NCBI GenBank assembly: GCA_001766815.1
Contig: LYOS01000002.1
Coordinates: forward strand, 378,802-410,801
DNA from: Candidatus Syntropharchaeum caldarium
Lineage (GTDB): Archaea; Halobacteriota; Syntropharchaeia; Syntropharchaeales; Syntropharchaeaceae
DNA: 32,000 nt
Reading direction: 5' to 3'
The position numbers and the translations under genes were made by a program. This document shows positions 4,365 to 31,356 of this stretch, one piece after another. Position 1 is the stretch's first letter. Each line of letters begins with the position of its first letter. The notes beneath the pieces are model-generated. The model did no database searches, had not been told where the DNA came from, and worked only from the letters and a program-made list of their open reading frames with translations.

Positions 4365-5723
4365 TCACCCCCTCCTGAACGCTTCCATCGCTTCTCTAAA
4401 TCTTACAACAGACTCAGGATCTGATGCAAAGTGGAGATGCATGTACGAAGCAAGTGTTCCGCCCTGGATGATCCCATCATGTTTGCCATCGATCCCATTT
4501 CCCCGTAGCATCCTGTATGCAAACCGCAAATCTTCCGGCGGATCATGAACCGCTGTATAGTGAAACTCATGACCCAGTACACGCTTTCCTTTTGCAAATA
4601 ATACTGAGTCGTTTATCGTCTCTGCAACCGTGAACTTGACGTGCCTTCCATTCATACCCGACTCAATCGGCAGGAAACCAACCCCTCTCGATCCAGCGAG
4701 TTTTTTTCCGAGATAAATTAAACCACCACACTCTGCAATTGTCGGGATTCCATCATCAAGCACTCTCTGCAGGTCTTTAAGCATACTCTCATTTCTTGAA
4801 AGCTCTTTTGCGAATACCTCAGGGTAGCCCCCTCCAATATAAAGCCCATCAAGTTGGGGAAGTCTTTTGTCACTCAGTGGGCTGAAAAATACAGGTTCAC
4901 AGCCGTTTATGCGCAGAAGGTCGAGCGAATCCTCGTAATAGAAGTTGAAGGCATCGTCGTATGCAACCCCCACCCTGAAGATACCATCACCAATGCCCTC
5001 TTGCCTTAAAAAAACCACAGGGGCTTCCGTCTCTATTTCTGGAGCACTCTCTGCGATCTCAAGGATTCTGTCAAGATCTACGTACGTCTCGATAACAGAG
5101 CGAATCCCCTCAAGCTCAATTCCTGACTCAACCATCGGAATAAGTCCAAGATGTCTGTCACAGATCTCCATCTCTTCGGATCTGGGGATTGCACCAATCA
5201 CACTGACCCCTGCGAGATCCTCGACCGCGGTAACCACCTTCTTTCTGTGCTCCTCGCCGGCGATATTGTTCAGGATTACACCTTTTATCATAACCTCACG
5301 ATCAAAGGATTTAAACCCGTGAACGATCGCTGCGGCGCTCTTTGTAATACTCTTTGCATTCACGATCAGGATTACGGGGGCTTTCAGGATCTTTGCAATA
5401 TGCGCTGTGCTCCCCTCTTCCTGATGTATCGAGATCCCCTCAAATAACCCTCTTACACCTTCGATGATCGATAAATCCTTGCTGGTGCTGTTTCGAAAGA
5501 AGATCTCTTTTATTGTCGCTGGTGTCATCAGCACACTGTCAATATTTCGAGATGAATGCCCTGTTGCCTTGCGGTGGTATCCGGGATCGATATAATCAGG
5601 TCCGACCTTATAACCCTGGACATCAAAACCACGCCCTGTCAGGGCTGACATCACGCCTGTTGTGATTGTGGTCTTCCCGACGCCGCTACCCGATCCTGCA
5701 AATATGATTCTTGGAAATTTCAT
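4365..5723 (-). CDS. cbiA: cobyrinate / Ni-sirohydrochlorin a,c-diamide synthase (CbiA/CfbB family)
   Basis: The N-terminal P-loop is AGSGSGVGKTTIT. The C-terminal glutaminase domain carries the nucleophile in IAECGGLIYLG and HEFHY. At 452 aa the length is typical. I cannot discriminate the cobalamin (CbiA) from the F430 (CfbB) paralog from sequence alone. Confidence 0.85.
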   Translation of the reverse strand: MKFPRIIFAGSGSGVGKTTITTGVMSALTGRGFDVQGYKVGPDYIDPGYHRKATGHSSRNIDSVLMTPATIKEIFFRNSTSKDLSIIEGVRGLFEGISIHQEEGSTAHIAKILKAPVILIVNAKSITKSAAAIVHGFKSFDREVMIKGVILNNIAGEEHRKKVVTAVEDLAGVSVIGAIPRSEEMEICDRHLGLIPMVESGIELEGIRSVIETYVDLDRILEIAESAPEIETEAPVVFLRQEGIGDGIFRVGVAYDDAFNFYYEDSLDLLRINGCEPVFFSPLSDKRLPQLDGLYIGGGYPEVFAKELSRNESMLKDLQRVLDDGIPTIAECGGLIYLGKKLAGSRGVGFLPIESGMNGRHVKFTVAETINDSVLFAKGKRVLGHEFHYTAVHDPPEDLRFAYRMLRGNGIDGKHDGIIQGGTLASYMHLHFASDPESVVRFREAMEAFRRG

Positions 5724-8464: not shown

Positions 8465-8587
8465 ATCTTTTGACCTCCTAAGTGATCAAATCACGTCATG
8501 CATGTTTATGAACTTTACCAGAGAGGAATAGTATCTGACGCAGAAGTTCCAAAAATTAAAATACAGGATCTTATAGAGTATGTTACT

Positions 8588-10480
8588 ATGAAAGAGTTAA
8601 CGGTAGATGAGAAAGCAGCATCACTTCTGGGGAAGGCAAAAAAGGATGACGTTGAGATTGTCTGGGATCGTTTTGAGCGGCAGGGGGATAAATGCAACTT
8701 TGGAGAGCTTGGGATATGCTGCAGAAACTGCAATATGGGACCGTGCAGACTCACACATCCCTCGCTACCGGTGCATCTGAGGAAGGGGCCATTTGCGACA
8801 AAGGCAGAGAAAGGAGTGTGTGGTGCAGGATATGATACGATCGTTGCGAAAAACCTCACAAAGGCCATTGCAGCAGGTGCTGCAGCACATTCAGATCACG
8901 GAAGAGATGTAGCAGAAACGTTACTTCTTGTAGCAGCGAATAAGGCATCGGGCTATACAATCAAGGACGAAAAGAAACTTGACGCCCTTGCATCAGAGTT
9001 TGGAATTGATACAGCAGGCAAGAGTAAAGAAGAGATCGCAGGAGAGCTTGCACGTGCCGTGCTTGATGAGTTCGGGACGCTCAAGGGTAGATTGCAGTTT
9101 GTTGAGCGTGCACCTGAGGCAAGACGGAAAGTCTGGCAGGATCACGGGATCACACCACGCGGTATCGATCGTGAGATCGTTGAGATGATGCACAGGCTAC
9201 ATATCGGGGTTGATAACGAATATGTGAGCCTGATCCTGCAGGGGTTAAGGGTAGCCATATCAGATGGCTGGGGTGGATCGATGGTAGCAACAGAACTTTC
9301 TGATGTCCTCTTTGGAACACCAAAACCTGTAAAGTCGAGTGTAAATCTCGGGGTACTTGATGAGAAAAAGGTCAATATCATTGTACACGGACACGAACCG
9401 ATCCTCTCTGAGATGATCGCGGATGCAGCAGAAGATCCTGAGCTCATTGAACTTGCAAAGAGCGCAGGTGCCGAGGGTATCAATCTATGTGGAATCTGCT
9501 GCACTGCAAATGAGCTGCTGATGCGTCGTGGAATCCCAATTGCAGGAAACTTCCTCAATCAGGAACTTGCACTCATCACAGGGGTTGTTGAAGCGATGAT
9601 CGTTGACGTACAGTGCATAATGCCATCACTCGGCGAGATTGCAAAGTGCTATCATACACTGCTCATCTCAACATCCTCAAAGGCAAAGTTCCCCCATGCT
9701 GAGCATATCGAGTTTGATGTAACACGGGGCAAGGAGATTGGAAAGGAGATCGTAAAACAGGCAGTTCTGAACTTCAAGAGCCGTAACCCTGATCGAGTTC
9801 AGGTGCCTTCAGATCCCGTTGAGATGATGGCGGGATTCAGTGCTGAGGCAATCATCGAGGCACTTGGTGGAAGCCTGACGCCGCTCATCGACGTGATAAA
9901 AGCGGGTAAGATCAGGGGGATTGCTGCACTCGTTGGTTGCAACAATCCGAAGGTCACACAGGATAAGAATCATACCGTGATCGCAAAAGAACTCATCAAG
10001 AGAAATATACTTGTGGTTGAGACAGGGTGCAGCGCAATCGCCTGTGCAAAGGCAGGCATGCTTCTCCCAAGTGCTGCAGAGATGGCAGGAGAAGGGCTTA
10101 AGGCAGTCTGCAACTCACTCGGCATCCCACCGGTTCTTCACATGGGCTCGTGTGTTGATATAAGCAGGATACTCGTTGTTGCAGGTGCAATCGCAGATGA
10201 ACTCGGTGTTGACATCTCGGATCTACCCATTGCAGCCGCAGCACCTGAGTGGATGAGTGAGAAAGCAGTGAGTATCGGCGCTTATGCGGTTGCATCAGGA
10301 ATTTACACACTCCTTGGCGTATCTCCTGCAATCTTTGGAAGTTCCAATGTCGTTGAACTCCTGACAGCAGGTGCTGAGGATGTTGTTGGTGGCAAATTTG
10401 CAGTTGAATCCGATCCAGTAAAAGCGGCTGATATGATCGCGAATGTGATCGAAGATAAGCGCATGAGTCTCGGAATTTGA
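8588..10480 (+). CDS. cooS: anaerobic carbon-monoxide dehydrogenase catalytic subunit
   Basis: The Cys pattern is CNFGELGICCRNCNMGPCR...GVCGA, then VHGHEP, CGICCT, VDVQCI, GCNN, TGC and MGSCVD, which are the B/C/D-cluster ligand motifs. The ATG at 8588 (MKELTVDEKAASLL) gives the N-terminal spacing seen in CooS homologs. The longer ORF from 8498 would leave only 33 nt to the divergent aroC start. Confidence 0.85.
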   Translation: MKELTVDEKAASLLGKAKKDDVEIVWDRFERQGDKCNFGELGICCRNCNMGPCRLTHPSLPVHLRKGPFATKAEKGVCGAGYDTIVAKNLTKAIAAGAAAHSDHGRDVAETLLLVAANKASGYTIKDEKKLDALASEFGIDTAGKSKEEIAGELARAVLDEFGTLKGRLQFVERAPEARRKVWQDHGITPRGIDREIVEMMHRLHIGVDNEYVSLILQGLRVAISDGWGGSMVATELSDVLFGTPKPVKSSVNLGVLDEKKVNIIVHGHEPILSEMIADAAEDPELIELAKSAGAEGINLCGICCTANELLMRRGIPIAGNFLNQELALITGVVEAMIVDVQCIMPSLGEIAKCYHTLLISTSSKAKFPHAEHIEFDVTRGKEIGKEIVKQAVLNFKSRNPDRVQVPSDPVEMMAGFSAEAIIEALGGSLTPLIDVIKAGKIRGIAALVGCNNPKVTQDKNHTVIAKELIKRNILVVETGCSAIACAKAGMLLPSAAEMAGEGLKAVCNSLGIPPVLHMGSCVDISRILVVAGAIADELGVDISDLPIAAAAPEWMSEKAVSIGAYAVASGIYTLLGVSPAIFGSSNVVELLTAGAEDVVGGKFAVESDPVKAADMIANVIEDKRMSLGI

Positions 10481-10495
10481 TGAATAAAACGCACG

Positions 10496-11008
10496 CTATT
10501 TGATCTGTAACAACGGACTGTTCCTGTTGATATGGCAGATCGCAACCGCTATTGCATCTGCTGTATCATCAGGCTTTGGTATATCGTGCAGATTAAGAAG
10601 CAGACGCACCATCTCCCCAACCTGGGCTTTCTTTGCTTTCCCATACCCAGTTATTGCCTGTTTAACCTCAAGTGGGGTGTACGAAAAAGTTTCAACCCCC
10701 ATCGTCACAGTAGCGAGCATTAGAACTCCTCTTGCTTCGCTCACGTCCATAGCGGTTTTTGCGTTCGCATAAAAGTAGAGCCGTTCAATTCCAGCTTCAT
10801 CGGGGTTAAAACGGTCGATGATTGCAGATATTTCGTCATAGATCATCTTGAGTCGTTTAGCATGTTCCATCTTTGCAGGGGTGCTTATATAACCACAATC
10901 AAGAAGCCTCATCAAATTGTTGCTCGATTCAACAACCCCCCATCCAGTGGTTGCAGTTCCAGGATCAATTCCAAGTACAACAAGTGGCCTACCAGAGCGT
11001 CCTGGCAT
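10496..11008 (-). CDS. ruvC: RuvC-type crossover junction endodeoxyribonuclease
   Basis: VLGIDPGTATTGWGVV (catalytic Asp), IERLYF (Glu) and PDDTADAIAVAICH (Asp/Asp) are present. The ATG at 11006-11008 is preceded by GGAGGGG. The ORF-track extension to 11071 is unlikely. Confidence 0.8.
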   Translation of the reverse strand: MPGRSGRPLVVLGIDPGTATTGWGVVESSNNLMRLLDCGYISTPAKMEHAKRLKMIYDEISAIIDRFNPDEAGIERLYFYANAKTAMDVSEARGVLMLATVTMGVETFSYTPLEVKQAITGYGKAKKAQVGEMVRLLLNLHDIPKPDDTADAIAVAICHINRNSPLLQIK

Positions 11009-11447
11009 CAATAATCCCCTCCTCCGTGACAATCGCAGAGACAAGCTCAAGCGGTGTTGCATCAAATGCAAAGTTCAAAACATCAACTCCATCAGGGGCG
11101 TTCTTGATTCCCTTGAAGTATCGAAGCTCATCCCCATCTCGCTCTTCAACCTTTATATCTGCTTCTGTGTGATTAAGATCGAACGTCGAGGTTGGTGCTG
11201 CAACATAGAAGGGTATCCCGTGATGCTTTGCATTTACAGCATGTGAGTATGTCCCGATCTTGTTAAATACCGCATCTTTGACGATTCTGTCCGCACCAAC
11301 AATCACCTTGTCGATTAGCCCACGTTGCATGAGATATGCGGCAGATGAGTCGGTTATGAGCGTGACAGGTATTTTATCTTCCATAAGTTCCCATGCTGTG
11401 ATCCTTGAGCCCTGATTGAGCGGACGGGTCTCACATGCAATCCACAT
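10989..11447 (-). pseudogene. displaced 3' fragment of mtnA (C-terminal ~145 codons only)
   Basis: ...ACETRPLNQGSRITAWELMEDKIPVTL...VSAIVTEEG is near-identical to residues ~180-320 of the full-length gene at 16036-17016. There is no N-terminal half. The first codons (MWI) come from junction sequence. The C-terminus (IIDARTLW*) overlaps the ruvC start. Confidence 0.8.
11010..11438. repeat. direct repeat copy A (mtnA 3' end), right-hand partner at 16051-16479
   Basis: In my hand alignment the offset is a constant 5,041 bp at both ends. I found no indels and about 13 substitutions in 429 nt. Confidence 0.85.
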
Positions 11448-11569
11448 TTTGGATATAACATATTTTCCTCCGTCTTAATTCATTTTTTTCTATCATCGTA
11501 TTCAAAGGTACACTTCTATCCGTTGAGGAATTGCTGAGCATCCGCTTTGTCGTTTTCCGCTCATTTTGT

Positions 11570-11779
11570 TTAATCCTCCTCAAATATGCCACACATGAAA
11601 CATACGAAAGCACCTATTATACATGCTTTTCCTAGGAGAAGGTTACCACCCCACCAAGCCGCAAAAGTAGCGTCATTCGATAGTCGCGCCCATCCCACAA
11701 AAATAATCGTACTGAGATAACTCAGCAGAGGCCCCATCAAAAGAACGAACCCTGATGCATACCATTGGATTTTATTCAT
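11570..11779 (-). CDS. small two-span membrane protein
   Basis: It has two hydrophobic helices (FVLLMGPLLSYLSTIIFVGW and LLLGKACIIGAFVCFMCGIF). It lies 20 nt downstream of the nuclease gene, and the ATG at 11779 (MNKIQWY) is preferred. The only support is ORF length and hydropathy. Confidence 0.4.
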   Translation of the reverse strand: MNKIQWYASGFVLLMGPLLSYLSTIIFVGWARLSNDATFAAWWGGNLLLGKACIIGAFVCFMCGIFEED

Positions 11780-11798
11780 GTGATTTTCCTCCAATCAA

Positions 11799-12620
11799 TT
11801 AGTCAAACCCACTATAACTGTAGCTTATCACTAAATTACCGCCCACTTCTCTTAAATAAAGTGTATCACCATCATTGTTCCATATTGCGTTACATGTATG
11901 ACCGCTGCTATTCCAGTATAGTGCTCTTTTTGTATCCATTCCAGAACCTGTGTACAGCGTAACCGTGGCACCACCTGCCAGTTCAAAATCTGGAAACGTG
12001 TAGATATGATTCGCCTCATCTTTAACACTCCAGCCGGTCATATCGATCGATTCGGTGCAGGTATTCTTGAAGGTGACATACTCATCGTTGAGGTTATAGC
12101 AATCATTGCCCTCTGCATTCCAGTTAAAATAAAGGATACCGATGCATTTAGATAAACCTTCTGATTGTTGCCATATTCCTCTTTTTGCGTTTTTTGCTTC
12201 TTCTTCGGCTTTTTCAAAGTCATCTGAATATCTCGTGTTTGGAGGTATGATATAGACGTTAGCGTATCCTTCTCTAACCAGTTCTAAGTTTACAAATCTA
12301 TCATCAATGTAAATATACCTTAACAGTCTTCCATATTTGTCCTTATCCTCAACATCCTTTTCCAACATTACTGTTTTTCCTTCAATTAATTTCTTTAGCA
12401 TATTTGTCGCTTCTTCGTAGTATGGTTGTCCCATCTCTGGCGTATTAATTCCGAGCAATCTGACCCTTTCGCCGTTCTGTAATTCTACAGTATCACCGTC
12501 TATTACACTGGTTACAACAGCGGTTGAGATTGGTCGTTCCGTTTCAAGGCATCCCGCAAAAATTAGAGCCAACGTGATTACAATTGCAGCTAATAAACGT
12601 GCTATGGTTTTCTTCTTCAT
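11799..12620 (-). CDS. secreted lipoprotein: staphylococcal-nuclease (SNase) domain fused to a lamin-tail (LTD) domain
   Basis: A signal peptide with a lipobox-like LIFAGC leads the protein. The SNase motifs are VIDGDTVEL...VRLLGINTPE...KYGRLLRYIY...RGIW, with the Ca-ligand Asp40 equivalent being Asn. The C-terminal LTD pattern is NAEGNDCYNLNDEYVTFKN...MTGWSVKD...IWNNDGDTLYL. Confidence 0.8.
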   Translation of the reverse strand: MKKKTIARLLAAIVITLALIFAGCLETERPISTAVVTSVIDGDTVELQNGERVRLLGINTPEMGQPYYEEATNMLKKLIEGKTVMLEKDVEDKDKYGRLLRYIYIDDRFVNLELVREGYANVYIIPPNTRYSDDFEKAEEEAKNAKRGIWQQSEGLSKCIGILYFNWNAEGNDCYNLNDEYVTFKNTCTESIDMTGWSVKDEANHIYTFPDFELAGGATVTLYTGSGMDTKRALYWNSSGHTCNAIWNNDGDTLYLREVGGNLVISYSYSGFD

Positions 12621-12724
12621 GTTTCTTAACTCCCTTTTATGTTAAAGTTCCATCCTTATCATCCCGCAATAAATTCGAGGGCATCTCGTTGATATATCTT
12701 GCTCATTTCTCCTTCTTAATATAG

Positions 12725-13069
12725 TCAATCCTTTTTTTCAGCTTCGCTTTGTAACCATGCAAAGATTGCTAATATTAAGACAAATATTGCCTTCAAAAAA
12801 GATATTACGACCAATTCCAACATACTAATGTGTGATTGCATGCATCTAATCGCACCCGTTTCTGTATAAGAAGAACACCCAGCTAATGTTGTGCCCATAA
12901 TATCTCCTGCGAGATATATGTTTAGGGCAAGGTAACCACTAGATGCAGCAAGGAACGAAATAAATAACAGCCATTGCCATTTTTTCTTCCATACGAGTAT
13001 AGCCAGAATGATTATAAGTATCAACGTCTGAACAATGAGCATCAACGCTTGAACTTCTGTCACGCTCAT
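12725..13069 (-). CDS. membrane protein (3-4 TM), function unknown
   Basis: Support is from hydropathy only. It sits in the island operon. Confidence 0.45.
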   Translation of the reverse strand: MSVTEVQALMLIVQTLILIIILAILVWKKKWQWLLFISFLAASSGYLALNIYLAGDIMGTTLAGCSSYTETGAIRCMQSHISMLELVVISFLKAIFVLILAIFAWLQSEAEKKD

Positions 13070-13163
13070 CTATTCGTCATCACCTCTATTTTCCGATCAC
13101 CCTTTTTCATTTCGCCCACAGAAACTCTTCTGGAAATTTTTTACTTCTGTTGGTAAGCATACT

Positions 13164-14576
13164 TTACTTTCTCCTTCTAACAAGATACACAACCACTAAC
13201 AACCCTGCAATTGCAAATATCGCTGTGAATCCTGGAACTCCAAAAATACTTTCAGCTATCCAGATCGTGACTACTATGATCTCCTTTACTGGAACATCCC
13301 CCGGTGCAGCAATTTTTGGTGTAAGTTCTCCGCCTTCACCTACGGTATAGGCCTGCGTACCCTTGTTGTATGTCAGATTTGCTTCTATCCCAATATCTCT
13401 GGGTTCGGTCAGCGTGATTGTGTAGTTACAGGTATGTTCCTCGCCTGGTTGTAATTCTTCTCCCGACCAGTAAATTCTGTTAAAGTCAGGGTTGATTTTA
13501 CAGCCTGAAATCGCCTCAACATGCAGATCTACTGGGTGATCGATCTTTAAGTTGATATCGGTTGCTTTAACCTCACCAATGTTCTGGATCGTCAATGAGA
13601 TCAGTGCTGTACCCGTTCCATACTTTTCAATCTTGTATCCCAGATTTAGCTGTGCCTCTTTTACGATTTGTGTTGCTGGTGTTGATGTTATTGTCGGCGT
13701 TACAGTAGAGATTGTTGTTGGTATCACTGTTGGAGTACCACCTGTCTCTGTAGCGGTTACCGTCGGGCCTGTGCCTCCACCACCGCTGCCACCGCCGCTG
13801 GATTCAGTAGCGGTAGGTGAAGCTGTTTTTGTCTCAGCTGGCGTGGGTGTAGTAACAGTCATCGGATCAAGCGGATACGCATCTTGGCCATCCCATACAC
13901 CGTCACCATCGGTGTCAGGATCACATGGATCAGTTATCCAGCCATCTGCGCCTTCAACAGTTTCTTCAAAGTCATTAAGACCGTCTCCATCAGTGTCAAC
14001 CTTGTCTGGATCTGTGCATCCAAGCTGCTCCTGTGTGTCCGGGATACCATCTCCGTCTGAGTCTGTGGGACCACTCCCGCCCCCTCCTCCTCCACCGGTA
14101 CCACCACTGGATTCGGTAGCAATTGGTGTCACCGTGGGTGTCTCAGTCTCGGTTGGTGTGTGGGTTGCCTCTGGCTCACCTGTTGCACCAAGGTCAAGCA
14201 TTCGTGGCTCTGCCATGCTCTGCCACCCGGTGGTCTCATTTGCACGAACACCGTTCACGTAGAAGATGATCGTCTTACCATCATCCACTGCGCTGCCCGC
14301 TACTTCAAGATAGTTGAAATCATGACCGTACTTTCCTGCTGACTCAACCATGACACTTCCCCGAAGCTCACCATCGATGTATGCATTTATTACTGTCCCA
14401 ACTGGGGCTGGTTCACCATTCAATGTCACATTACCATAGAACTTGTTTGGAGGAAGTTGTGCATCTCCCATCACTGTCGTCATCGATACCGCCGTAATTA
14501 CGGCCCCGATCAAAAGCACAAAAAATATCAGATTCATTCCTTTCTTCAACAAATTCCTGATCGCCATTTCCTCCAC
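13164..14576 (-). CDS. PGF-CTERM-anchored surface protein
   Basis: Domain order: signal/TM; a ~90-aa beta-sandwich ([19 protein letters not shown]...FYVNGVRA); Thr/Pro and Gly-rich linkers; thrombospondin-type-3-like Ca loops ([27 protein letters not shown]); a CARDB-like module; and the C-terminal [24 protein letters not shown]. The ORF-track start is GTG, and the ATG 9 nt downstream (MAIRNLL) is an alternative. Confidence 0.8.
13167..13244 (-). other. PGF-CTERM archaeosortase (ArtA-type) sorting signal
   Basis: A PGF tripeptide (13227-13235) is followed by a hydrophobic helix and an RRRK tail at the extreme C-terminus. A Thr-rich linker precedes it. Confidence 0.75.
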
Positions 14577-14601
14577 GCCTCTAATGACGGTTTAGCTCAG
14601 A
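14541..14601 (-). promoter_or_regulatory. conserved leader plus first ~12 codons, shared with 15940-16000
   Basis: The 61-nt block tttcttcaacaaattcct...cctctaatgacggtttagctcaga recurs with about 6 mismatches. On the coding strand it reads ctgagctaaaccgtcattagagg.gtggaggaa followed by M..RNLLKK. A TATA-like TATAAATA lies just upstream (about 14611-14618). Confidence 0.45.
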
Positions 14602-14622
14602 CCATATTTATACGTTTGGATT

Positions 14623-15375
14623 TTAACTTTTCACAGAGTCAAAAAGAATAATCTCAAATACTTCATCAGAAACTGGGAACGAAAAAGTTATTTTTGGGTA
14701 GCGGAATTCAAAATATTGAATAATGTGTTCTATGTTGAATTCTTCCATTAATTTCTGAAAAGGTTCTTTTGCTAAATTCATAAATTTAGCAGGGTCTATT
14801 AAGATGCACTTTTCATTCTCGATTTTAGATAACATGAAAAGTCTTTTGGATGTTTCTTCTCCAAGAAGTGCAAATTCTTTATTTTGTTTGACTTGGAGTA
14901 AATTTTTGGCAGTAGCCTCATTTTCAGAAAAATACTTTTCGGGATTTTTTCCAATTCCATGCGCTATTTTGGCAAATTCTGAAGTATTAAAAATAATGCG
15001 GCCATCTTCTTTGGCTTGTATGAGCAAATCTTCAAGTTTTTGTTTTGATGCTACGAACAAAATATAGCCTTTTTCAACTTCATCAACCGCGATAACCTTT
15101 ACACAAGATTTTAAAAAAGAGTGAAACAAGCCCTGTTTTAACGTTTCGAGAATATCAAGATGGTCGTGGTGCTCTCCATTGGTCGTCCAATGTCCAGTTA
15201 TTCTTTTCAAAGATTCTTTTTCATCAAACAATATGGTAAAATGGTCATCCCTTCCTCTTTTCATCAAATCATCCTTGACGCCAAAAATAAGACCGTCTCT
15301 ACATAAAGCTATAAAAAATTCGTTACCCATAAAATCTATTTCCAGCTTTGATTTCTTTGTCTTGAACATAAACAC
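14623..15375 (-). CDS. hypothetical cytoplasmic protein (no signal peptide), orphan
   Basis: This is a 250-aa ORF in the most AT-rich part of the window. It has no motif I can recognise. Confidence 0.5.
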   Translation of the reverse strand: MFMFKTKKSKLEIDFMGNEFFIALCRDGLIFGVKDDLMKRGRDDHFTILFDEKESLKRITGHWTTNGEHHDHLDILETLKQGLFHSFLKSCVKVIAVDEVEKGYILFVASKQKLEDLLIQAKEDGRIIFNTSEFAKIAHGIGKNPEKYFSENEATAKNLLQVKQNKEFALLGEETSKRLFMLSKIENEKCILIDPAKFMNLAKEPFQKLMEEFNIEHIIQYFEFRYPKITFSFPVSDEVFEIILFDSVKS

Positions 15376-15441
15376 TCACCCGTTTCTTTCATCTTATAAA
15401 ACCTTACGAATGGCTTGGTAAACTCTCACGTCTCTCTTTCT

Positions 15442-15975
15442 CTATGCTCCTAACAGTGAATTACAAGCTTCAATTTGTTTTTCTGAGCTATTAATTGCAT
15501 CGATAACTAAAGATCTCTCTTCAAAAGTTGGATAAAGCTCTAATAACATCTTTAATTTCTCTAATGATTGTGAGTAAAAATGTTTAGCGTTATTAATGAA
15601 ATAAGCAGCTTCTCCAGAGTTAAAGGCAGTATAAAATGCAATATCCCCGTCCACCTCGTCAATTCTCGCATCTACAAATAATACCCAATCCTCTTCTCCA
15701 GCGCTAATAAAAGCCTCCTTAGATTTTTGTAAAAGCCCTCTAACATCATGCAGCTGGTATAACACTTGATTATAATTAAAATCATCACCTTGTATAGTAT
15801 GCAGCATTGCAGTATTCACTTCATTCCAACAGAACATCGCATCGTTATAATATTCTATCCCTTTACTTTTATCCCCTATGCATCCCGAAAATATAACGAC
15901 CAATGCAATCACTGCTATCGCTATTAAGCCTGCTATATCTTTCTTCAACAAATTCCTCATCATAACTTCCTCCAC
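15442..15975 (-). CDS. putative secreted lipoprotein, helical
   Basis: A signal peptide ends in VIFSGCIG (lipobox-like Cys). The rest is predicted soluble. The N-terminus and leader are homologous to those of the gene at 13164-14576. Confidence 0.55.
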   Translation of the reverse strand: MEEVMMRNLLKKDIAGLIAIAVIALVVIFSGCIGDKSKGIEYYNDAMFCWNEVNTAMLHTIQGDDFNYNQVLYQLHDVRGLLQKSKEAFISAGEEDWVLFVDARIDEVDGDIAFYTAFNSGEAAYFINNAKHFYSQSLEKLKMLLELYPTFEERSLVIDAINSSEKQIEACNSLLGA

Positions 15976-16000
15976 ACCTCTAATGACGGTTTAGCTCAGA
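15940..16000 (-). promoter_or_regulatory. conserved leader plus first ~12 codons, twin of 14541-14601
   Basis: See 14541-14601. A TATA-like TTTAAAT lies about 10 nt upstream of the conserved block (about 16006-16012). Confidence 0.45.
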
Positions 16001-16035
16001 TTAGATTTAAACTTTTGGATAACTCACTTCCCATC

Positions 16036-17016
16036 TTAGAACGGCGGATAAATAACCCCCTCCTCCGTAACAATCGCAGAGACAAGCTCAAGCGGTGTAG
16101 CATCAAATGCAAAGTTCAAAACATCAACTCCATCAGGGGCGTTCTTGATTCCCTTGAAGTATCGAAGCTCATCCCCATCTCGCTCTTCAACCTTTATATC
16201 TGCTTCTGTGTGATTAAGATCGAATGTGGACATTGGTGCTGCAACATAGAACGGTATGCCGTGATGCTTTGCATTTACAGCATGTGAGTATGTCCCGATC
16301 TTGTTAAATACCGCATCTTTGACGATTCTGTCCGCACCAACGATCACCTTGTCGATCATCCCACGTTGCATGAGATATGCGGCAGATGAGTCGGTTATGA
16401 GCGTGACAGGTATTTTATCTTCCATAAGTTCCCATGCCGTGATCCTTGAGCCCTGATTGAGCGGACGGGTCTCACATGCTACGACCTCCACATGCTTTCC
16501 CTCCTCAAAGCACGATCTTATAACACCAAGTGCAGTCCCCCAGTCAACACAGGCAAGCCTCCCAGCGTTACAGTGTGTTAGAACCCTCTCCCCATCCTTG
16601 AAGAGTTTAGCGCCATGTTTCCCAATCGCTCGATTGACCTCTACATCCTCCTCTGCCATTCTTTTTGCAAGATCAAGTGATCTCTCCCGTGCTTCACCGA
16701 CAGACTCACAATCTTCAACCGCAGCAAGTACACGCTCAACCGCCCACTGTAGGTTAACCGCGGTTGGTCTCGCATTTTTAAGCTCTTCACACTTCTTAAG
16801 AGCTTCTTCTATCGTGGTAGAGGTCTTGAAAGATAGAACAACCCCAAACGCAGCTGCAACACCAATTGCCGGAGCCCCCCGAACAGCAAGTGTCCTGATT
16901 GCATGAATAAGCTCATCAACCGTATTACAGAGAAGAAGATCAGGTGTATCTGGAAGCATACGCTGATCAATGAGTGTCACAGCCTCTTTTTGATCATCCC
17001 ACGCGATTGTCTGCAT
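16036..17016 (-). CDS. mtnA: S-methyl-5-thioribose-1-phosphate isomerase (MtnA / aIF-2B-like family)
   Basis: It has the N-terminal TLIDQRMLP motif, RGAPAIGVAAAFG, and VGADRI...NKIGTY. The full length is 326 aa. Confidence 0.85.
   Translation of the reverse strand: MQTIAWDDQKEAVTLIDQRMLPDTPDLLLCNTVDELIHAIRTLAVRGAPAIGVAAAFGVVLSFKTSTTIEEALKKCEELKNARPTAVNLQWAVERVLAAVEDCESVGEARERSLDLAKRMAEEDVEVNRAIGKHGAKLFKDGERVLTHCNAGRLACVDWGTALGVIRSCFEEGKHVEVVACETRPLNQGSRITAWELMEDKIPVTLITDSSAAYLMQRGMIDKVIVGADRIVKDAVFNKIGTYSHAVNAKHHGIPFYVAAPMSTFDLNHTEADIKVEERDGDELRYFKGIKNAPDGVDVLNFAFDATPLELVSAIVTEEGVIYPPF
16051..16479. repeat. direct repeat copy B (functional mtnA 3' end), partner of 11010-11438
   Basis: See copy A. 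Homology ends at ...gggtctcacatgc on the gene-internal side, and within 1-3 nt of the ruvC ATG position on the other side. Confidence 0.85.
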
Positions 17017-17019
17017 AAA

Positions 17020-17940
17020 TTACCCACGCCAGACTGACTTAAGCTCATTGCCGATCCTCTCTGCCGCAGAGATTGCACCATCACGAGATACAGTCTTTTT
17101 GATATGTGATAAAACACCTCCATCATCGGTTAAAATCTCAGCAATGATCGTGATCCCTGAATCCTCTTCTGCCTCTGCGTATACACCGATCGGAACTTTG
17201 CACCCTGCACCAAGTATCTCGATGATCCTTCGCTCCAGGATTGTAACAAGCCTCGTCTCCGGGTCATCGAGCTGTGATACTATCTCAGATGCCGATGTCT
17301 GGGTTTTTGCAACGACCGCGATCGTTCCCTGGTTTGCAGATGGGACAAACCGTTCTGGATCAAGCCGCTCAAAGCCCAGATCAAATTTCCCATCAATCCA
17401 CCCCATGCGCTCAAATCCCGCCTCTGCAAGGAGTATTGCATCATAATCTCCACGAATGAGCTTTTTAACTCTCGTATCGATATTTCCACGTATATCCTCA
17501 AGTTTCAGATCCTTTCGTTCTCGCATAATCTGGCAACGCCGCCTCATACTCGATGTTCCGATGACAGAGCCTGCTGGAAGCTCAGATAATCTTGAGCCAT
17601 CACGTGTCACAAGAAGATCACACGGCGAGTCTCTGGGAAGAATTGCAGCAATCTCAAGCCCGCGAGGTCTTTCTGTTGGTATATCCTTCATCGAGTGGAC
17701 AGCGATATCGATCTCACCTCGCAGCATCACATCATCAAGCTCTCTCACGAATGTTCCAAAACCCTGAAACTCGAATAGCGGTTTATCCTGAATTACATCA
17801 CCAGATGTCTTCACAATCTTTCTTGAAAACTCAAACCCCATCTCTGAGAGCATAGCCTCAACGATCTCGGTTTGACGGACTGCAAGCGCACTCCCCCGTG
17901 TCCCGATTATGATTTTATCAGACTGCAAGCTCGTCACCAA
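17020..17940 (-). CDS. hemC: porphobilinogen deaminase (hydroxymethylbilane synthase)
   Basis: [17 protein letters not shown] and the cofactor-binding GAGCKVPIG are present. The length is 306 aa. Confidence 0.9.
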
Positions 17941-19189
17941 AGGTTGCGATTGTGGTATCTATATCCTCCTCACTGTGTGCAAATGAGATGAAGTTCGTCT
18001 CAAACTGCGATGGTGGAAGGAATATGCCATGCTTAAGCATTCTACCAAAAAACTTGAAATATCCTTCTTTATCACATTTGAGAGCCTCAGTGTAGTTTGA
18101 TGGAAGTTCTCCAAAGAAGACAATGAACATCGATCCAATCCCACCAACTGCATAGTCGAGGCCTGCATCATGGATGATCTCGGCTAAAGCATTTCTCAAT
18201 CGTTCACCACGTGCATTTATCACACGGTGAACATCCTCCTTTACAAGTGTCTCGATCGTGGCGATCCCAGCTGCAAGTGATAGAGGGTTGCCATTGAATG
18301 TTCCAGCCTGATAAACCTTTCCCTGTGGTGATACGTTCTCCATAATATCGCGTCTTCCACCAACGACTCCTATAGGAATGCCGCCCCCAATAACCTTGCC
18401 GAGCGTTGTCATATCTGGCTTAACCCCGAAGTATTCCTGTGCACCGCCCATAGCAAGCCTGAAGCCCGTTATGACTTCATCAAATATCAGGAGTATATCG
18501 TTTTCTGCTGTTACAGCCCTGACCTCTTCAAGATACCCTTTTTCTGGTGTGATTGTGCCGATATTACCAAGCACTGGCTCCATAATAAGTGCCGCAATTT
18601 CGCCCTTATTTGCCTCTATCAGGCTCACAAGTGATTCGATGTCGTTGTATGGAACCTGTAGTGTATTCTTTGTAAAATCTCGTGGCACACCGAGCGAATC
18701 GGGTACACCATGGGTTGTAGCTCCTGATCCAGCCTTAACAAGGCACGCATCATGTGCCCCATGAAACCCACCTTCGATTTTTATGAACTTATCCAGCCCT
18801 GTAAATCCCCTTGCAACACGAATGGCTGCCATTGTAGCCTCTGTCCCTGTATTTACAAATCGCATCATCTCAATAGCGGGAAAATACCGATTGATCTTCT
18901 CAGAAAGCTCAACTTCAAGCTCACAGGGTGTTCCGTAGAGCCAGCCATCATCAAGCTGACGTTTCAGCGCTTCTTTGATTGCAGGATAACTGTGCCCAAG
19001 TATCAATGGACCATAACCCATGCAGTAGTCGATATACTCGTTTCCATCAACGTCCATGATCCTTGAACCATGGGCAGACTTTGTGTAAAACGGATATGGC
19101 TTTATCGCACGAACAGGGCTTGAAACGCCACCAGGAATGAAGTTTTTTGCCTTTTCAAATAACTCAATCGATCTTTTCATTTCATCCAT
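17918..19189 (-). CDS. hemL: glutamate-1-semialdehyde 2,1-aminomutase
   Basis: [20 protein letters not shown] and the PLP-Lys in TLGKVIGGG are present. The length is 423 aa. An alternative ATG at 19180 would abut the kae1 stop. Confidence 0.95.
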
Positions 19190-20166
19190 ACTATATCAAC
19201 CTCATCAGGTCTGTAATCAGGTATGACCTTGGACTCCTCGATCTGGAGGGTTTTTCCAGCCGACAGAAGGAGATGGCCTGTATATGCTATCATGATACCG
19301 TTATCCTTCAAAACATTTTTCGGGGGGACGGAGAATGCTGCACCCCGTGCCATACACATATCCTCAACCATCTCTGCGAGTCGCCTGTTTGCACCAACCC
19401 CGCCGACAAGCAGCACCTCATCCTTCTCACAGTGGGCAAGTGCACGCTCAGTGACCTCTGTGAGCATCGCAAATGCGGTCTCCTGAAGACTGTAACATAC
19501 ATCCTCAAGTGGATTTTTCCTTGTAGCATTGATTGCAGCAGTTGTGAGACCTGAAAACGAAAAATCCATTCCTTTAACAACGTACGGGAGTGGTATATAC
19601 CTTCTTGAAGTTGATGCAAACACCTCAATCTTCGGACCTCCAGGATGGCTCAATCCAACTCCACGAGCGAACTTATCAAGCGCGTTCCCTATTCCGATAT
19701 CGAGTGTCTCACCAAAGATCCTGTACCTTCCAGCCCTGTATGCAAGAACCTGTGAGTTTGCACCACTGACATAGAGTGTCACAGGATCTTTGAGATCGCA
19801 TAACCATTTCCCAACCTCGATATGCGCGATGCAGTGATTGACACCTAAAAGTGGGATTCCAAGCTTGATCGAGAGTGTGCGTGCTGCGGTTGCAACCGTC
19901 CTGAGACATGGTCCCATACCAGGTCCCTGTGAAAATGCGATTCCATCAAGATCTGCTGGAGTGATGCCTTTTGCTGATGCTTTCTCAAATACTTCTTTTA
20001 TCACAGCCTTTATCTCTGCTGCATGGTGCTGGGCTGCTTCTCTTGGATGGATGCCACTACCTTCACCGGGTACGTAGGTCGACTCTGCTTCTGCGATAAT
20101 TTCTGTTTCTGATATGATCCCTGCAGATAGATTCCACGCAGTGCCCTCAATGCCGAGTATGAGCAT
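19177..20166 (-). CDS. kae1: tRNA N6-adenosine threonylcarbamoyltransferase Kae1 (stand-alone, no Bud32 fusion)
   Basis: [10 protein letters not shown], the metal site [10 protein letters not shown], and SGANSQV are present. The ATG at 20166 (MLILGIEG) is preferred over the ORF-track start at 20253, which would overlap the upstream gene. Confidence 0.9.
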
Positions 20167-20189
20167 CAGGATAGATATATCACGCGGGC

Positions 20190-20213
20190 TTAAAGAATCT
20201 TCGTATCGAAGAT
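20190..20213 (-). terminator. possible transcript-end hairpin after the 801-aa gene
   Basis: A perfect 7-bp stem with a 3-nt loop, atcttcg-ata-cgaagat on the minus-strand transcript (20197-20213), is followed on that strand by TCTTTAA. It lies in the 64-nt gap between the 801-aa gene stop and the kae1 start. Archaeal terminators are poorly defined, so confidence is low. Confidence 0.3.
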
Positions 20214-20230
20214 GATCACTTCCGCGAAGC

Positions 20231-22636
20231 TTACCCACAGCACCCAATCTCATACGTCGCAGGGTTGTTGACGTGGTTCAGTAATAGAATCACATCACCC
20301 ATATCTACAGAGCCATCGCAGTTTACATCCCCTCCATCGAGTGGTTCATCCGATAAATCCCCAACATATTCAAGTAAGAGGATGACATCATCAATATCGA
20401 CCGTACCATCACCGTCGAGGTCGCCATCTTCTGAGCCGATATAGCTCTCAAACCTCTCCACCAGCGGATAATAATCCTTATCACCATCTATGCTATAAGC
20501 AGTATCGCCAATTCCATCCCCATCAGCATCGCTTCCTTTGTAATCGCTCCAGTAGTTTCCAAGATAGTTTGTGTAGGTGTCGCCATTGTAGGTATAGGTT
20601 ATTTTCTCGGTGGAGTTCCAGATGTTTGTTGAAGAGAGAGAATAAACGTTATCTGTGTTATTTATGAAGTTGTTGAGGTAGATGTTATTGTTGCTGGAAT
20701 ATTCGAGGTAGATTCCATCATCGTTGTTCGAGGCATTGTTGTTATAGATAGTATTGTTGCTGCTGGAATACCACAGCTCGATGCCATCGCCGTTGTTCGA
20801 GACATTGTTGTTATAGATAGTATTGTTGCTGGAACCCTTCAGCTTGATGCCCCAACCGTTGTTCGAGTTTGCGGTGTTGTTATAGATTTTGTTGCTGCTG
20901 GAATACCACAGCTCGATGCCATCGCCGTTGTTCGAGGCGTTGTTGTTATAGATAGTATTGTTGCTGCTGGAATCCCATAGACAGATGCCATTATGGTTGT
21001 TCGAGTTTGCGGTGTTGTTAATTAGAGTGTTATTGCTGGAAGAGTAGAGATAGATTCCATTCCAGTTGTTCGAGCTTACAATATTGTTTGCTATGATGTT
21101 GTTGTTGCTGGAATAACCCAGACGGATGCCACAACCGTTGTTCGATGCGTTGTTGTTATAGATAGTATTGTTGTCGCTGGAATCCCATAGACAGATGCCA
21201 TTATGGTTGTTCGAGTTTGCGGTGTTGTTATAGATTTTGTTATTGCTGGAATACCCCAGCTCGATGCCATCGCCGTTGTTCGAGTTTGCGGTGTTGTTTT
21301 TAATAATATTATGCGATGAGAATCCTAATTGAACTCCTACAGCTGTATTGCTAATATTTAGATTCTCTATTCTCATTCCCGTACAGTTGGCAAGAATGAC
21401 CTGCCCTGCATCCTCGGGAACCTTACCTCCAATCTTGTTCTTAAAATAATAAAGAGGTTTACCATTGACAATGTTGCCTTCTATTGTATGAGTGTTCCAG
21501 TGTTGTAGTTGAGAACCCCCAATGACAATGCCATCACTATTCATTACGTTGTTGGTGATGCTGTTGTTGCTGGAAAACCACAGAGCGATGCTATCTCCGT
21601 TGTTCGAGTTTACGATGTTGTTATAGATATTGTTGCTGCTCGAAGAATACAGGAAGATTCCATCCCAGTTGTTCGAGCTTACGGTGTTGTTATAGATAGT
21701 ATTATTGCTGGAATCCCCCAGATAGATGCCCCACTCGTTGTTCGAGTTTACGATGTTGTTATAGATGGTGTTGTTACTGGAAGAAGACAGATGGATGCCA
21801 TCTTCGTTGTAGTTGTTCGAGGCGGTGTTGTTATAGATAGTATTATTGCTGGAATCCCCCAGATAGATGCCCCACTCGTTGTTCGAGTTTACGATGTTGT
21901 TATAGATGGTGTTGTTGCTGGAATACCACAGCTCGATGCCATCTTCGTTGTTCGAGGCGTTGTTGTTATAGATAGTATTGTTGTTGCTGGAAGAGTAGAG
22001 GTAGATTCCATCGTGGTTGTTCGAGCTTACGATATTGTTTGCAAGGGTGTTGTTGCTGGAAGAGTGGAGGTAGATTCCATAGTAGTTGTTCGAGCTTACG
22101 GTGTTGTTTGCTATGATGTTGTTGTTGCTGGAATAACCCAGACAGATGCCATAATCGTTGTTCGAGACGGTGTTGTTATAGATTTTATTGTTGTTAGAAT
22201 CCCACAGAAAGGTGCCATACCGGTTGTTCGTGATGCTGTTACAGGCGATTTTATTAGCGTTTGAAACTACATTTATCCCTGCATTTGGCCAACTACCTAA
22301 GTTTCTTACAGTGAATCCTTCAATCGTAATTCCATCTGCATTTAATGTAATTACATTGCCACTGCCTCCACCATCCACGATACAATTAGCAGAGCCGTTT
22401 TCTGATTTGATGGTCAATTGTTTATTCACTATCACGTTCTCGTAATATGTTCCATCCCTTACAACAATCGTATCCCCAGCGGATGCATTATCCACAGCCC
22501 ATTGAATTTTTGCGTAGTTGTCGGGCACGTAGATCGTTGTTGCAGACGCCAGCGCCACACTCACACCCACGAAAGCACAAAGTAGCACAAATGCCACACA
22601 CATTCCAAACGCGAGATATTTTATATCTTTATTCAT
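20231..22636 (-). CDS. secreted Asn-rich right-handed parallel beta-helix (NosD/CASH-like) protein with C-terminal dockerin
   Basis: After a signal peptide (MNKDIKYLAFGMCVAFVLLCAFVGVSVALA) come more than 25 rungs of the ~22-24-aa coil N-N-x-I-x-x-N-x-x-x-G-I-x-L-x-x-S-S-N-N. A cap module follows ([26 protein letters not shown]...[15 protein letters not shown]), then the dockerin. Confidence 0.85.
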   Translation of the reverse strand: MNKDIKYLAFGMCVAFVLLCAFVGVSVALASATTIYVPDNYAKIQWAVDNASAGDTIVVRDGTYYENVIVNKQLTIKSENGSANCIVDGGGSGNVITLNADGITIEGFTVRNLGSWPNAGINVVSNANKIACNSITNNRYGTFLWDSNNNKIYNNTVSNNDYGICLGYSSNNNIIANNTVSSNNYYGIYLHSSSNNTLANNIVSSNNHDGIYLYSSSNNNTIYNNNASNNEDGIELWYSSNNTIYNNIVNSNNEWGIYLGDSSNNTIYNNTASNNYNEDGIHLSSSSNNTIYNNIVNSNNEWGIYLGDSSNNTIYNNTVSSNNWDGIFLYSSSSNNIYNNIVNSNNGDSIALWFSSNNSITNNVMNSDGIVIGGSQLQHWNTHTIEGNIVNGKPLYYFKNKIGGKVPEDAGQVILANCTGMRIENLNISNTAVGVQLGFSSHNIIKNNTANSNNGDGIELGYSSNNKIYNNTANSNNHNGICLWDSSDNNTIYNNNASNNGCGIRLGYSSNNNIIANNIVSSNNWNGIYLYSSSNNTLINNTANSNNHNGICLWDSSSNNTIYNNNASNNGDGIELWYSSSNKIYNNTANSNNGWGIKLKGSSNNTIYNNNVSNNGDGIELWYSSSNNTIYNNNASNNDDGIYLEYSSNNNIYLNNFINNTDNVYSLSSTNIWNSTEKITYTYNGDTYTNYLGNYWSDYKGSDADGDGIGDTAYSIDGDKDYYPLVERFESYIGSEDGDLDGDGTVDIDDVILLLEYVGDLSDEPLDGGDVNCDGSVDMGDVILLLNHVNNPATYEIGCCG
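20234..20425 (-). other. dockerin module (two F-hand repeats) of the 801-aa protein
   Basis: The sequence is GDLDGDGTVDIDDVILLLEYV ... [32 protein letters not shown]. Confidence 0.7.
20925..21230. repeat. intragenic tandem duplication, period 210 nt (three beta-helix rungs)
   Basis: 20925-21020 and 21135-21230 are about 96 nt each with about 3 mismatches. They encode [29 protein letters not shown]. Confidence 0.8.
21683..21916. repeat. intragenic tandem duplication, period 141 nt (two beta-helix rungs)
   Basis: 21683-21775 and 21824-21916 are 93 nt each and identical by my reading. They encode [31 protein letters not shown]. Confidence 0.8.
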
Positions 22637-22755
22637 TCCAATCGCCTCTTTTCTACATCTATTTTGAGTATATCGATCTGATCAAAAGTAAAACTGAAAT
22701 CACCTCATACATACACTCCTCCAAATTCTGTGCATGCCCCAAATATAAACTTAAC
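22637..22755 (-). promoter_or_regulatory. conserved promoter/5' leader module of the 801-aa gene (twin of 30629-30750)
   Basis: The coding strand reads cgTTAAGTTTATATTTggggcatgcacagaatttGGAGGAGtgtATG..., with the TATA box at 22741-22749. A 17-codon uORF, MYEVISVLLLIRSIYSK*, occupies 22659-22712. A purine-rich aaaagagg lies before the main ATG. Confidence 0.5.
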
Positions 22756-22780
22756 GAGTGGGGTAGAATGCCAACCATCA

Positions 22781-30628: not shown

Positions 30629-30750
30629 TCTTCTGATCGCCTCTTTCCTGTATCTATTTTGAGTATATCGATCCGATCAAAAGTAAAACCGAAACCACCT
30701 CATACATACACTCCTCCAATTTCTGTGCATGCCCAAAATATAAACTTAAC
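30629..30750 (-). promoter_or_regulatory. conserved promoter/5' leader module of the giant gene (twin of 22637-22755)
   Basis: The TATA box TTTATATTT lies at 30736-30744 (coding strand). GGAGGAG plus a 17-codon u[20 protein letters not shown], occupies 30654-30707. Then ggaaagagg precedes the main ATG at 30628. There are about 10 substitutions and one 1-nt indel relative to the twin. Confidence 0.5.
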
Positions 30751-30774
30751 GAAAAGGAAGGATGTCGATCATCT

Positions 30775-31350: not shown

Positions 31351-31356
31351 ACATCA

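Follow-up and report, generated by a model that had tools for sequence, protein, structure and literature searches.

A probable strain-variable gene island behind mtnA in an uncultured alkane-oxidising archaeon, with repeats of the mtnA 3' end at its module boundaries

Repeats and genes behind mtnA

In a window of 32,000 nucleotides from Candidatus Syntropharchaeum caldarium (contig LYOS01000002.1), a block of envelope, secreted and nuclease genes (the cargo) lies behind mtnA, the last gene of the kae1-hemL-hemC-mtnA operon (16036-20253), and is bracketed by two direct repeats of the mtnA 3' end, the farther of which runs into ruvC (Table 1). An initial annotation, made from the sequence alone, had proposed that a segment with its own mtnA end was inserted between mtnA and ruvC, as an integrative element or through recombination. 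All genes of the operon, the island, the mtnA fragment and ruvC lie on the minus strand. In a fixed-offset comparison, 416 of the 429 bases of 11010-11438 and 16051-16479 are identical at an offset of 5,041 nt without indels, and the extended pair, 11007-11438 and 16048-16479, agrees at 418 of 432 positions; identity is at background level from 11439 onward and below 11007. BLAST of the window against itself gave 96.8% over 432 nt and a repeat search agreed, and neither found a third copy within the window. The direct repeats at a constant offset, as first described, are thus real, with 13-14 substitutions between them.

The open reading frame (ORF) list and family matches of the mtnA product (Pfam IF-2B, 5e-86; NCBIfam salvage_mtnA, 388.8 bits with a cutoff of 279) establish copy B as the 3' end of an intact mtnA gene, and copy A as a displaced distal fragment whose ORF overlaps the ruvC ATG, both as the initial annotation had it. 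Copy A had also been called promoterless. It is indeed a fragment, but it has its own ATG with a GGAGG approximately 20 nt upstream and is listed as a protein in public records. A homologue search with its ORF returned one close relative, P0121. The direct repeats carry the 3' end of a target gene that is restored on the proximal side, as expected of an integrative element. Below, R denotes the mtnA end, T the native mtnA tail (last codons, stop and the nucleotides up to ...GTGA), and P an 82-nt promoter, leader and first-codon stretch that the lipoprotein and PGF-CTERM genes have in common. T is also found in sister strains, where both kinds of downstream flank begin directly after it.

Searches of Pfam, PHROGs, NCBIfam and PADLOC found no integrase or transposase among the six ORFs of the cargo, which confirms the initial annotation on this point. 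In the cargo, only the SNase-LTD protein has phage- or defence-related matches: to a PHROG nuclease family, to 'SNc+LTD', a candidate defence family in PADLOC (3.5e-29), and, through its LTD part, to a PHROG family with the annotation tail protein. Five independent contigs from different sources encode this SNase-LTD protein in identical form. Among 1.84 billion representative proteins, the 248-aa orphan matches one homologous cluster only (79% identity), and its sole domain match, to peptidyl-tRNA hydrolase in Pfam, is below threshold. A variant of the lipoprotein, P0254, occupies the same position in the sister-strain contigs L092-L095, and the window's version of 12616..13160 is confirmed in the Logan contigs L082 and L083. 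Within the PGF-CTERM gene, 14190-14465 is 79% identical over 276 nt to 30991-31266, part of the gene of a 191-aa dockerin protein at a distance of 16 kb; this gene belongs to the surface-protein region, which therefore has a module in common with the island. The two P copies of the window are 87% identical over 82 nt, including an identical 23-nt core (0 expected by chance), and a third copy, fused to the SNase gene, lies at 14163-14244 of L092. P showed no stable RNA fold (z about 0) and no Rfam match; it may be a shared regulatory leader.

Part of the cargo had also been described as strongly AT-rich. The G+C content of the cargo is low (40.4%, against 47.4% in the operon), but this does not set it apart, because the surface-protein region 20254-32000 is equally low (40.8%). 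The window contains no tRNA genes, so a tRNA or tmRNA gene as the insertion target is ruled out, and no match to an Rfam RNA family; promoter and terminator scans remained at background level. The initial annotation had suggested looking for circular or other copies of the cargo. The cargo DNA matched neither plasmids nor phages, the repeat and leader patterns matched no viral contig, and all public copies of the cargo lie behind mtnA.

Table 1. Features of the mtnA locus and its surroundings, in window coordinates.
Feature	Position	Strand	Basis or remark
cooS, convergent with ruvC	8498-10480	+	flank conserved in relatives
ruvC, 170 aa from ATG at 11008	10496..11008	-	Pfam RuvC 8.5e-50
mtnA-fragment ORF, 152 aa, MWIACETRP...EEGIIDARTLW and stop	11447-10989	-	contains copy A; overlaps ruvC ATG at 11008-11006
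Repeat copy A (R)	11007..11438	-	5'-truncated mtnA fragment inside the 152-aa ORF
Joint microhomology, 9 nt GGGGTTATT	11010..11018	-	ends R in mtnA and also lies in L099's native ruvC leader; window reads GGGATTATT
Junction b	11439..11460	-	cargo end joined to internal mtnA position 429 nt from R end
69-aa membrane ORF	11570..11779	-	gene-called in L083, L084, L086, L092
Secreted SNase-LTD nuclease, lipoprotein signal peptide	11799..12620	-	Pfam SNase + LTD
Window-specific segment with 114-aa membrane ORF (13069-12725)	12616..13160	-	differs in L092-L095; BLAST against window
PGF-CTERM surface protein with TSP3-like Asp-rich repeats	13164..14576	-	Pfam PGF-CTERM, NCBIfam TIGR04126
P copy 2	14540..14621	-	upstream of, and overlapping, the PGF-CTERM gene start
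248-aa cytoplasmic orphan	14623..15369	-	ORF list
Lipoprotein-like gene, signal peptide and Cys, no known domain	15442..15963	-	ORF list, Pfam
P copy 1	15939..16020	-	TATA-like box, leader, first lipoprotein codons
Native mtnA tail (T)	16024..16047	-	YPPF codons, stop, 12 nt beyond, ending ...GTGA (alignments)
Repeat copy B (R)	16048..16479	-	last 432 nt of mtnA coding sequence common to copy A
Full-length mtnA, 326 aa, ending EEGVIYPPF and stop	17016-16036	-	last gene of the operon
hemC	17940-17020	-	operon gene
hemL	19189-17918	-	operon gene
kae1/tsaD	20253-19177	-	operon gene

Structural variants and repeat alleles in sister strains

The locus was compared with short-read metagenome contigs from several samples and assemblers; the variants described below are those of assembled contigs, whose power to prove linkage across a repeat is limited. 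Contigs from strains approximately 98% identical to the window came from Logan (L001, L082, L083), ENA (L084, L092, L096), JGI (L093, L098) and NCBI (L100), together with L094, L095 and L097. They were reached by exact-protein and cluster look-ups: exact look-ups of full-length mtnA and of the lipoprotein (with two alternative starts) returned no contig, and the cluster look-up led to the sister strains. The kae1-hemL-hemC-mtnA operon is 97.7% identical to that of L002, a metagenome-assembled genome of Candidatus Syntrophoarchaeum sp., and 77% identical to that of L003 (Ca. S. butanivorans BOX1), and the mtnA region is collinear with L002, L092 and L096 at 97.7-98.1%. When metagenomes were searched for exact matches to a conserved 26-mer of R, a single S. 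butanivorans-like contig, L091, came back, which was uninformative; a literature search found nothing on this locus.

Each junction of the window is found elsewhere. The passage from the mtnA tail to the lipoprotein promoter recurs in L092, L093 and L094, the order PGF-CTERM gene, 114-aa ORF and SNase gene in L082 and L083, the junction of the cargo end with copy A in L082, L083, L084, L092 and L100, and that of copy A with ruvC in L001, L096, L097 and L098. L092 runs from kae1 through mtnA into the cargo on one contig of 17.9 kb. A chimeric assembly, which the initial annotation had named as a possible refutation, is thus unlikely, every local junction being seen in two to five independent assemblies. 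At junction b, cargo and mtnA each have the motif ATGTGGA, which gives the fragment ORF its ATG.

Across these contigs, R is entered from three sides, namely the 5' part of mtnA (entrance a), the end of the 69-aa ORF (b, at -429) and the end of a 380-aa gene (c, at -184), and it is left towards T-P-cargo (exit 1), ruvC (exit 2) or T followed by D towards cobS (exit 3), where D is the flank after T in L002, L093 and L100 and reaches cobS in L093. Entrance a leads to exit 1 in the window and L092, to exit 2 in L096 and to exit 3 in L002; entrance b leads to exit 2 in the window and to exit 3 in L084 and L100; entrance c leads to exit 1 in L092 and to exit 3 in L093. Seven of the nine possible combinations (a1, a2, a3, b2, b3, c1, c3) were therefore observed, with b1 and c2 not seen. 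The R copies at the module ends measure 429-455 nt and 184-208 nt, a length sufficient for homologous recombination.

L092 reads mtnA, T, P, lipoprotein gene, a 249-aa gene, PGF-CTERM gene, the 380-aa gene, a 184-nt R, T, P, a signal peptide fused to the SNase gene, the 69-aa ORF and a 429-nt R, where the contig ends. It is collinear with window 20205-13161 at 97.8%, and the collinearity of all four contigs L092-L095 with the window ends at 13161. At the position of window 12616..13160, L092 has the 380-aa nuclease-like gene, the 184-nt copy of the mtnA end, T, P and the lipoprotein signal peptide, and L093-L095 have the same 380/387-aa gene and the beginning of the 184-nt copy. L093 follows L092 up to the T behind the 184-nt R, which carries a 5-nt deletion in L093, and continues with D. 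In L084 and L100, the SNase side and the 69-aa ORF are followed by the 429-nt R, T and D. Two contigs lack the cargo: L002 reads mtnA-T-D, loses homology to the window at 16024 and ends 163 nt later, and L096, a contig of 5.7 kb that is 98% identical to the window, reads proteasome-kae1-hemL-hemC-mtnA-ruvC-cooS with an mtnA product of 328 aa ending in ...DARTLW. Thus, the window, L092, L093, L096 and L002 are approximately 98% alike in the operon and differ in what lies downstream, which is the pattern of a flexible island. L096 shows exactly the empty site that the initial annotation had predicted, with mtnA overlapping ruvC, but public records have this mtnA protein from a single contig, and a deletion product or a repeat collapse would look the same. 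Both cargo-free contigs are single short-read contigs that cross or end at the repeat, and deletion between repeats would explain them equally well.

At its upstream R edge, at about 4461-4481, L096 has a diverged 15-nt patch, CACATTAATGTTATT in place of the CATGTGGAGGTCGTA of all other full-length copies, which turns HVEVVA into HINVIA and whose last three nucleotides (ATT) equal the cargo side of copy A. The YPPF ending of mtnA, taken initially for a surrogate tail, is the native one: in two of three sister contigs, L002 and L092, full-length mtnA ends in ...VVYPPFWD(G/E)(K/G) and a stop, and L096 has the ruvC-type tail. In L003, the stretch behind mtnA (11285-12880) encodes an HNH endonuclease, a protein of unknown kind and a DDE transposase that is IS630-like. 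This is another sign that the DNA behind mtnA is a rearrangement hot spot, with a flank that is unstable across the genus.

The 380-aa gene (L092 12795-13937; L093 3056-4219; also in L094 and L095) adjoins the 184-nt copy of the mtnA end in the sister strains and is absent from the window. Its product has 36 homologues, the only two named ones being from ANME-1/Methanophagales, no Pfam match and no likeness to a recognisable recombinase. The predicted structure (mean pLDDT 80) gives weak fold matches (E >= 0.016), mostly to restriction-endonuclease-like proteins (PaqCI, NucS/EndoMS, EcoO109I), and the family has the invariant acidic residues D179, E193 and E195. The middle R copy of L092, which lies next to this gene, is made up of 184 nt of R, T, P and 19 signal-peptide codons of the lipoprotein gene, which continue in frame into the SNase gene. 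A tandem duplication would leave such a structure if two similar signal peptides then recombined with loss of the DNA between them. Since the copy includes the promoter and those 19 codons in addition to mtnA sequence, tandem duplication is favoured over an att site as its source.

The initial annotation had implied a recent insertion, and had itself named the same arrangement in relatives as an argument against it. The sister strains argue against a recent arrival. Per 500 nt, L092 and the window differ at 4-14 positions in the part of the operon that lies upstream of the 3' half of mtnA, at 21 in that half itself and at 4-19 in the cargo, and L093-L095 give the same picture. Given that the cargo adjoins mtnA in four sister-strain contigs and has diverged there as much as kae1-hemL-hemC-mtnA, the block appears to be old. 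Neither a divergence break nor composition nor copies elsewhere point to recent or independent mobility of the cargo.

The R copies themselves are mosaics. Across 46 variable sites in R and T, alleles are combined in different ways from copy to copy. At 11184-11191, copy A has the same alleles as the full-length mtnA genes of L092 and L094 and the first copy in L093, its allele at 11211 is that of full-length mtnA in L092 and L094, and CTA at 11316-11318 is common to copy A and its positional counterpart in L084. At 11030-11035, copy A reads GTCTCT like copy B of the window, whereas the other ruvC-linked copies (L096, L097, L098) and the outgroup read GTTGAT. L092 has a stretch of 313 nt in which its first and its b-linked copy show no difference. 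Mosaic alleles and homogenised copies are both signs of exchange or conversion among R copies. Nine of the 13 differences between copies A and B are synonymous and four non-synonymous (dS 0.097, dN 0.012, NG86), and because they are mostly synonymous, these differences are alleles from functional genes. Decay of copy A as a pseudogene was considered and ruled out, as its alleles occur in functional mtnA genes elsewhere and dN/dS is about 0.13.

The joint between the mtnA fragment and ruvC

The initial annotation took an mtnA-ruvC overlap for the ancestral end of the operon. In relatives, ruvC has other neighbours. The closest RuvC relatives (72-77% at the amino acid level; L087, L089, L090) are encoded in the order NRD1_2-DUF357-ruvC, with a stop/start overlap in L089 and L090, and in L099, which is 88% identical at the nucleotide level over ruvC-cooS, a multihaem cytochrome gene and an 80-nt spacer precede ruvC. 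Downstream, a convergent Prismane-family gene follows ruvC in L090, L098 and L099, and the cooS side of the window is found in L001 and L096. In S. butanivorans, mtnA is followed by the HNH and IS630-like transposase genes described above. With these arrangements and the microhomology at the joint, the ancestral overlap does not hold up. Nor does the distal fragment always lead into ruvC, as had been assumed: L084 and L100 have the same cargo junction with the native tail behind it, and then the flank towards cobS.

L099 becomes homologous to the window at 11018, exactly at a 9-nt stretch, GGGGTTATT. The L099 ruvC leader reads ...ATATGGGGTTATTGATGCC..., and the R region of mtnA ends in the same nine nucleotides (GGGGGTTATT, then TATCC), which are present as GGGGTTATT at the mtnA end in copy B of the window and in L092. 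At 11010..11018, the window reads GGGATTATT, with an A at 11015. Because GGGGTTATT occurs in both parents exactly there, the joint is best explained by microhomology, through which the end of mtnA became linked to the leader of ruvC. The unrearranged partners are all seen in relatives, R-T-D in L084, L100 and L093, cytochrome-ruvC in L099, and DUF357-ruvC in L087, L089 and L090, and the joint of the mtnA fragment with ruvC is in all probability a secondary fusion.

The RuvC product of L099 begins MGLLMPRHSDRPLVV, matching ...GLLMPGRSGRPLVV in the window, and the N-terminus reads (G)LLMP(G/R)... in both. Because L099 has this matching start, the ATG at 11008 and the N-terminal extension are native to ruvC, and the joint would have removed the first codon of the gene. 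A ruvC start codon that evolved from a mutated mtnA tail is ruled out by the same native ATG and extension in L099. RuvC is of bacterial type in this archaeon. It has few relatives at 69-77%, three of them beside archaeal-type neighbours (NRD1_2, DUF357), and its other best matches are about 50-59% identical, the named ones being bacterial (Ruminococcus, Firestonebacteria), which suggests that ruvC is an old transfer from bacteria.

A probable flexible island and the alternatives

We consider it probable, at roughly 0.6, that the locus is a strain-variable flexible island of envelope, secreted and nuclease genes behind mtnA, reshaped by duplication, homologous recombination and microhomology joins and not borne by an integrase. 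Partial R copies, which mark the boundaries of modules, would have arisen through segmental or tandem duplication or, equivalently, when circles that had popped out crossed back in by Campbell-type single crossovers. Host homologous recombination would then use these copies, so that modules between them are deleted, duplicated or exchanged and the copies are converted against each other; the several forms of the block in sister strains could be explained by R copies serving as recombination substrates. In the lineage of the window, the distal R would have lost its native tail and been joined to the ruvC leader by an illegitimate microhomology event at GGGGTTATT, with the result that ruvC now lies behind, and overlaps, the ORF of the mtnA fragment. 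The window represents the variant without the 380-aa-gene module and the middle R copy, with its distal R fused to ruvC. We infer the order of these events, and the enzymes that would have acted (RadA-type recombination, replication template switching or end joining), from the structures of the contigs. The data agree best with the fallback of the initial annotation, in which recombination went through the mtnA arm and no integrase took part.

Flexible genomic islands, in which envelope genes are exchanged via conserved flanks, are a concept from bacterial and archaeal population genomics. The locus resembles them in its fixed site beside a housekeeping operon, its surface, secreted and nuclease genes of lower G+C content, its variable content at about 98% identity, the lack of a dedicated recombinase and the mosaic alleles of the flank. 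It differs from them in that 184- and 429-nt fragments of the flanking gene's 3' end lie inside the island and at its far side, so that modules are bracketed by repeats and can pop out. Tandem duplication with unequal crossing-over would account for a unit end joined to an internal upstream site, for the second unit of L092 that starts with T-P-signal peptide, for the 313-nt identity and for the patchy alleles; in contrast to a plain tandem duplication, the immediate 429-nt product, R followed by T-P-cargo, was not observed, and R is followed by the cobS-side flank or ruvC instead. The joint within a 9-nt stretch of both parents, with the unrearranged sides preserved in relatives, is typical of microhomology-mediated illegitimate recombination, but unlike in a pure microhomology fusion, it is only one step in the history of the locus. 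The locus adds one more example to a known kind of genome plasticity and opens no new class of system.

Four points weigh against this reading. Some of the seven combinations, above all a2 (L096) and a3 (L002), may be assembler chimeras through the 184-455-nt repeat. Copy A is spanned from the cargo to ruvC by no independent contig, and the linkage of b with ruvC comes from the original assembly alone. The ancestral downstream flank of mtnA is seen in no outgroup, and the change may have been an insertion or a deletion. Finally, the tail-bearing R copies all end at the same nucleotide, ...GTGA, and each of the two tail alleles is found with either kind of exit. Because of this, exchange within a few nucleotides of the homology boundary would be needed, which is more natural for a site-specific crossover than for homologous recombination.

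A bolder extension of the flexible-island reading is that the mtnA-end fragments act as portable homology arms, with modules that pop out as circles and spread between strains by single crossover into the essential mtnA gene. We regard this as doubtful. R might be a recombination hub that gives the island mobility without an integrase, and in a stronger version, a site-specific activity of an unrecognised kind might act at ...GTGA.

The order of events in the initial annotation, with mtnA-ruvC first (as in L096) and the cargo and one R-T copy added later by a single crossover of a circle from a sister strain, is unlikely in our view, although parts of it match the contigs well. L096 is just such a cargo-free mtnA(328 aa)-ruvC-cooS arrangement, a circle from an a1...b3 strain crossed into R would give exactly the structure of the window, and copies A and B differ by alleles that are in circulation among the strains. 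However, the L096-type mtnA comes from a single contig that crosses the repeat where L001, L097 and L098 all end, and a deletion between A and B in a window-like chromosome yields L096 equally well. Copy A, with GTCTCT at 11030-11035, is also unlike the other ruvC-linked copies, which have GTTGAT, which requires a crossover in the last approximately 20 nt of R or a later conversion.

Improbable as well, in our estimate, are integrase-mediated elements stacked at the mtnA 3' end, each with an attP of its own, 429 nt long in the SNase module and 184 nt long in the lipoprotein-to-380-aa module, and with an integrase that was lost or acts in trans. The locus is like integrase islands and proviruses at gene 3' ends in its target-gene-end repeats, intact gene, displaced 3' fragment and more than one module; the nucleases in the accessory content and the one downstream boundary at ...GTGA of R copies that differ in length also speak for this reading, as do tail alleles and exit types that occur in all four combinations though no more than 4 nt apart. 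The cargo-free versions L096 and L002 would do so too, but deletion between repeats would give them equally well. It is unlike them in that neither the window cargo nor the 380-aa gene of the sister strains encodes an integrase or transposase, in that the cargo diverged between strains like the core, and in that viral, plasmid and phage collections hold no further copy, free or second. The identity blocks of 184-455 nt are unequal in length. Att cores usually measure a few tens of nucleotides, and the mtnA repeats are roughly ten times longer than typical att identities. Moreover, one repeat, the middle copy, extends into a promoter and 19 codons of the neighbouring gene, which duplication predicts and an att site does not.

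We give hardly any weight to an assembly artefact, in which the contig would join two strains or loci via the repeat and no single genome would be so built: the contigs L001 (100%) and L082 (99.85% to the window) of SRR3669912 break inside the repeat, L082 mixes A and B alleles, and copy A has no independent spanning contig, as noted above, but an artefact appears unlikely because every window junction recurs in independent public assemblies of different samples, L092 holds mtnA and cargo contiguously, the window belongs to a contig of 410 kb, and, with two entrances, two exits and the link from mtnA to the cargo fixed, the cargo is forced to pair with ruvC.

The locus is a warning that direct repeats of a gene end around an AT-rich cargo without a recombinase are not to be read as an integrative element. 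It shows gene-end duplications organising a variable island in an uncultured alkane-oxidising archaeon and documents a bacterial-type ruvC re-wired behind a gene fragment. Junctions a, b and c and exits 1, 2 and 3 can serve as strain markers for Syntrophoarchaeum populations in Guaymas-type enrichments.

A second synteny break lies at 20205/20206, just upstream of kae1, where L002, L092 and L096 have proteasome, beta-CASP/CPSF and Nop genes and the window has the gene of an 801-aa beta-helix/NosD/dockerin protein ending at 20231. Because synteny breaks here too, the conserved operon has variable DNA on both sides. Dockerin domains are unusual in archaea. The region 20231-31980 encodes large surface proteins on the minus strand, including the 801-aa beta-helix and dockerin protein, a 2,615-aa ORF, the 191-aa dockerin protein and a TSP3/Big_1 protein, and these genes contain many internal and mutual repeats of 70-82% identity, such as 21096-21746 with 27546-28190 and 22572-22982 with 30564-30976.

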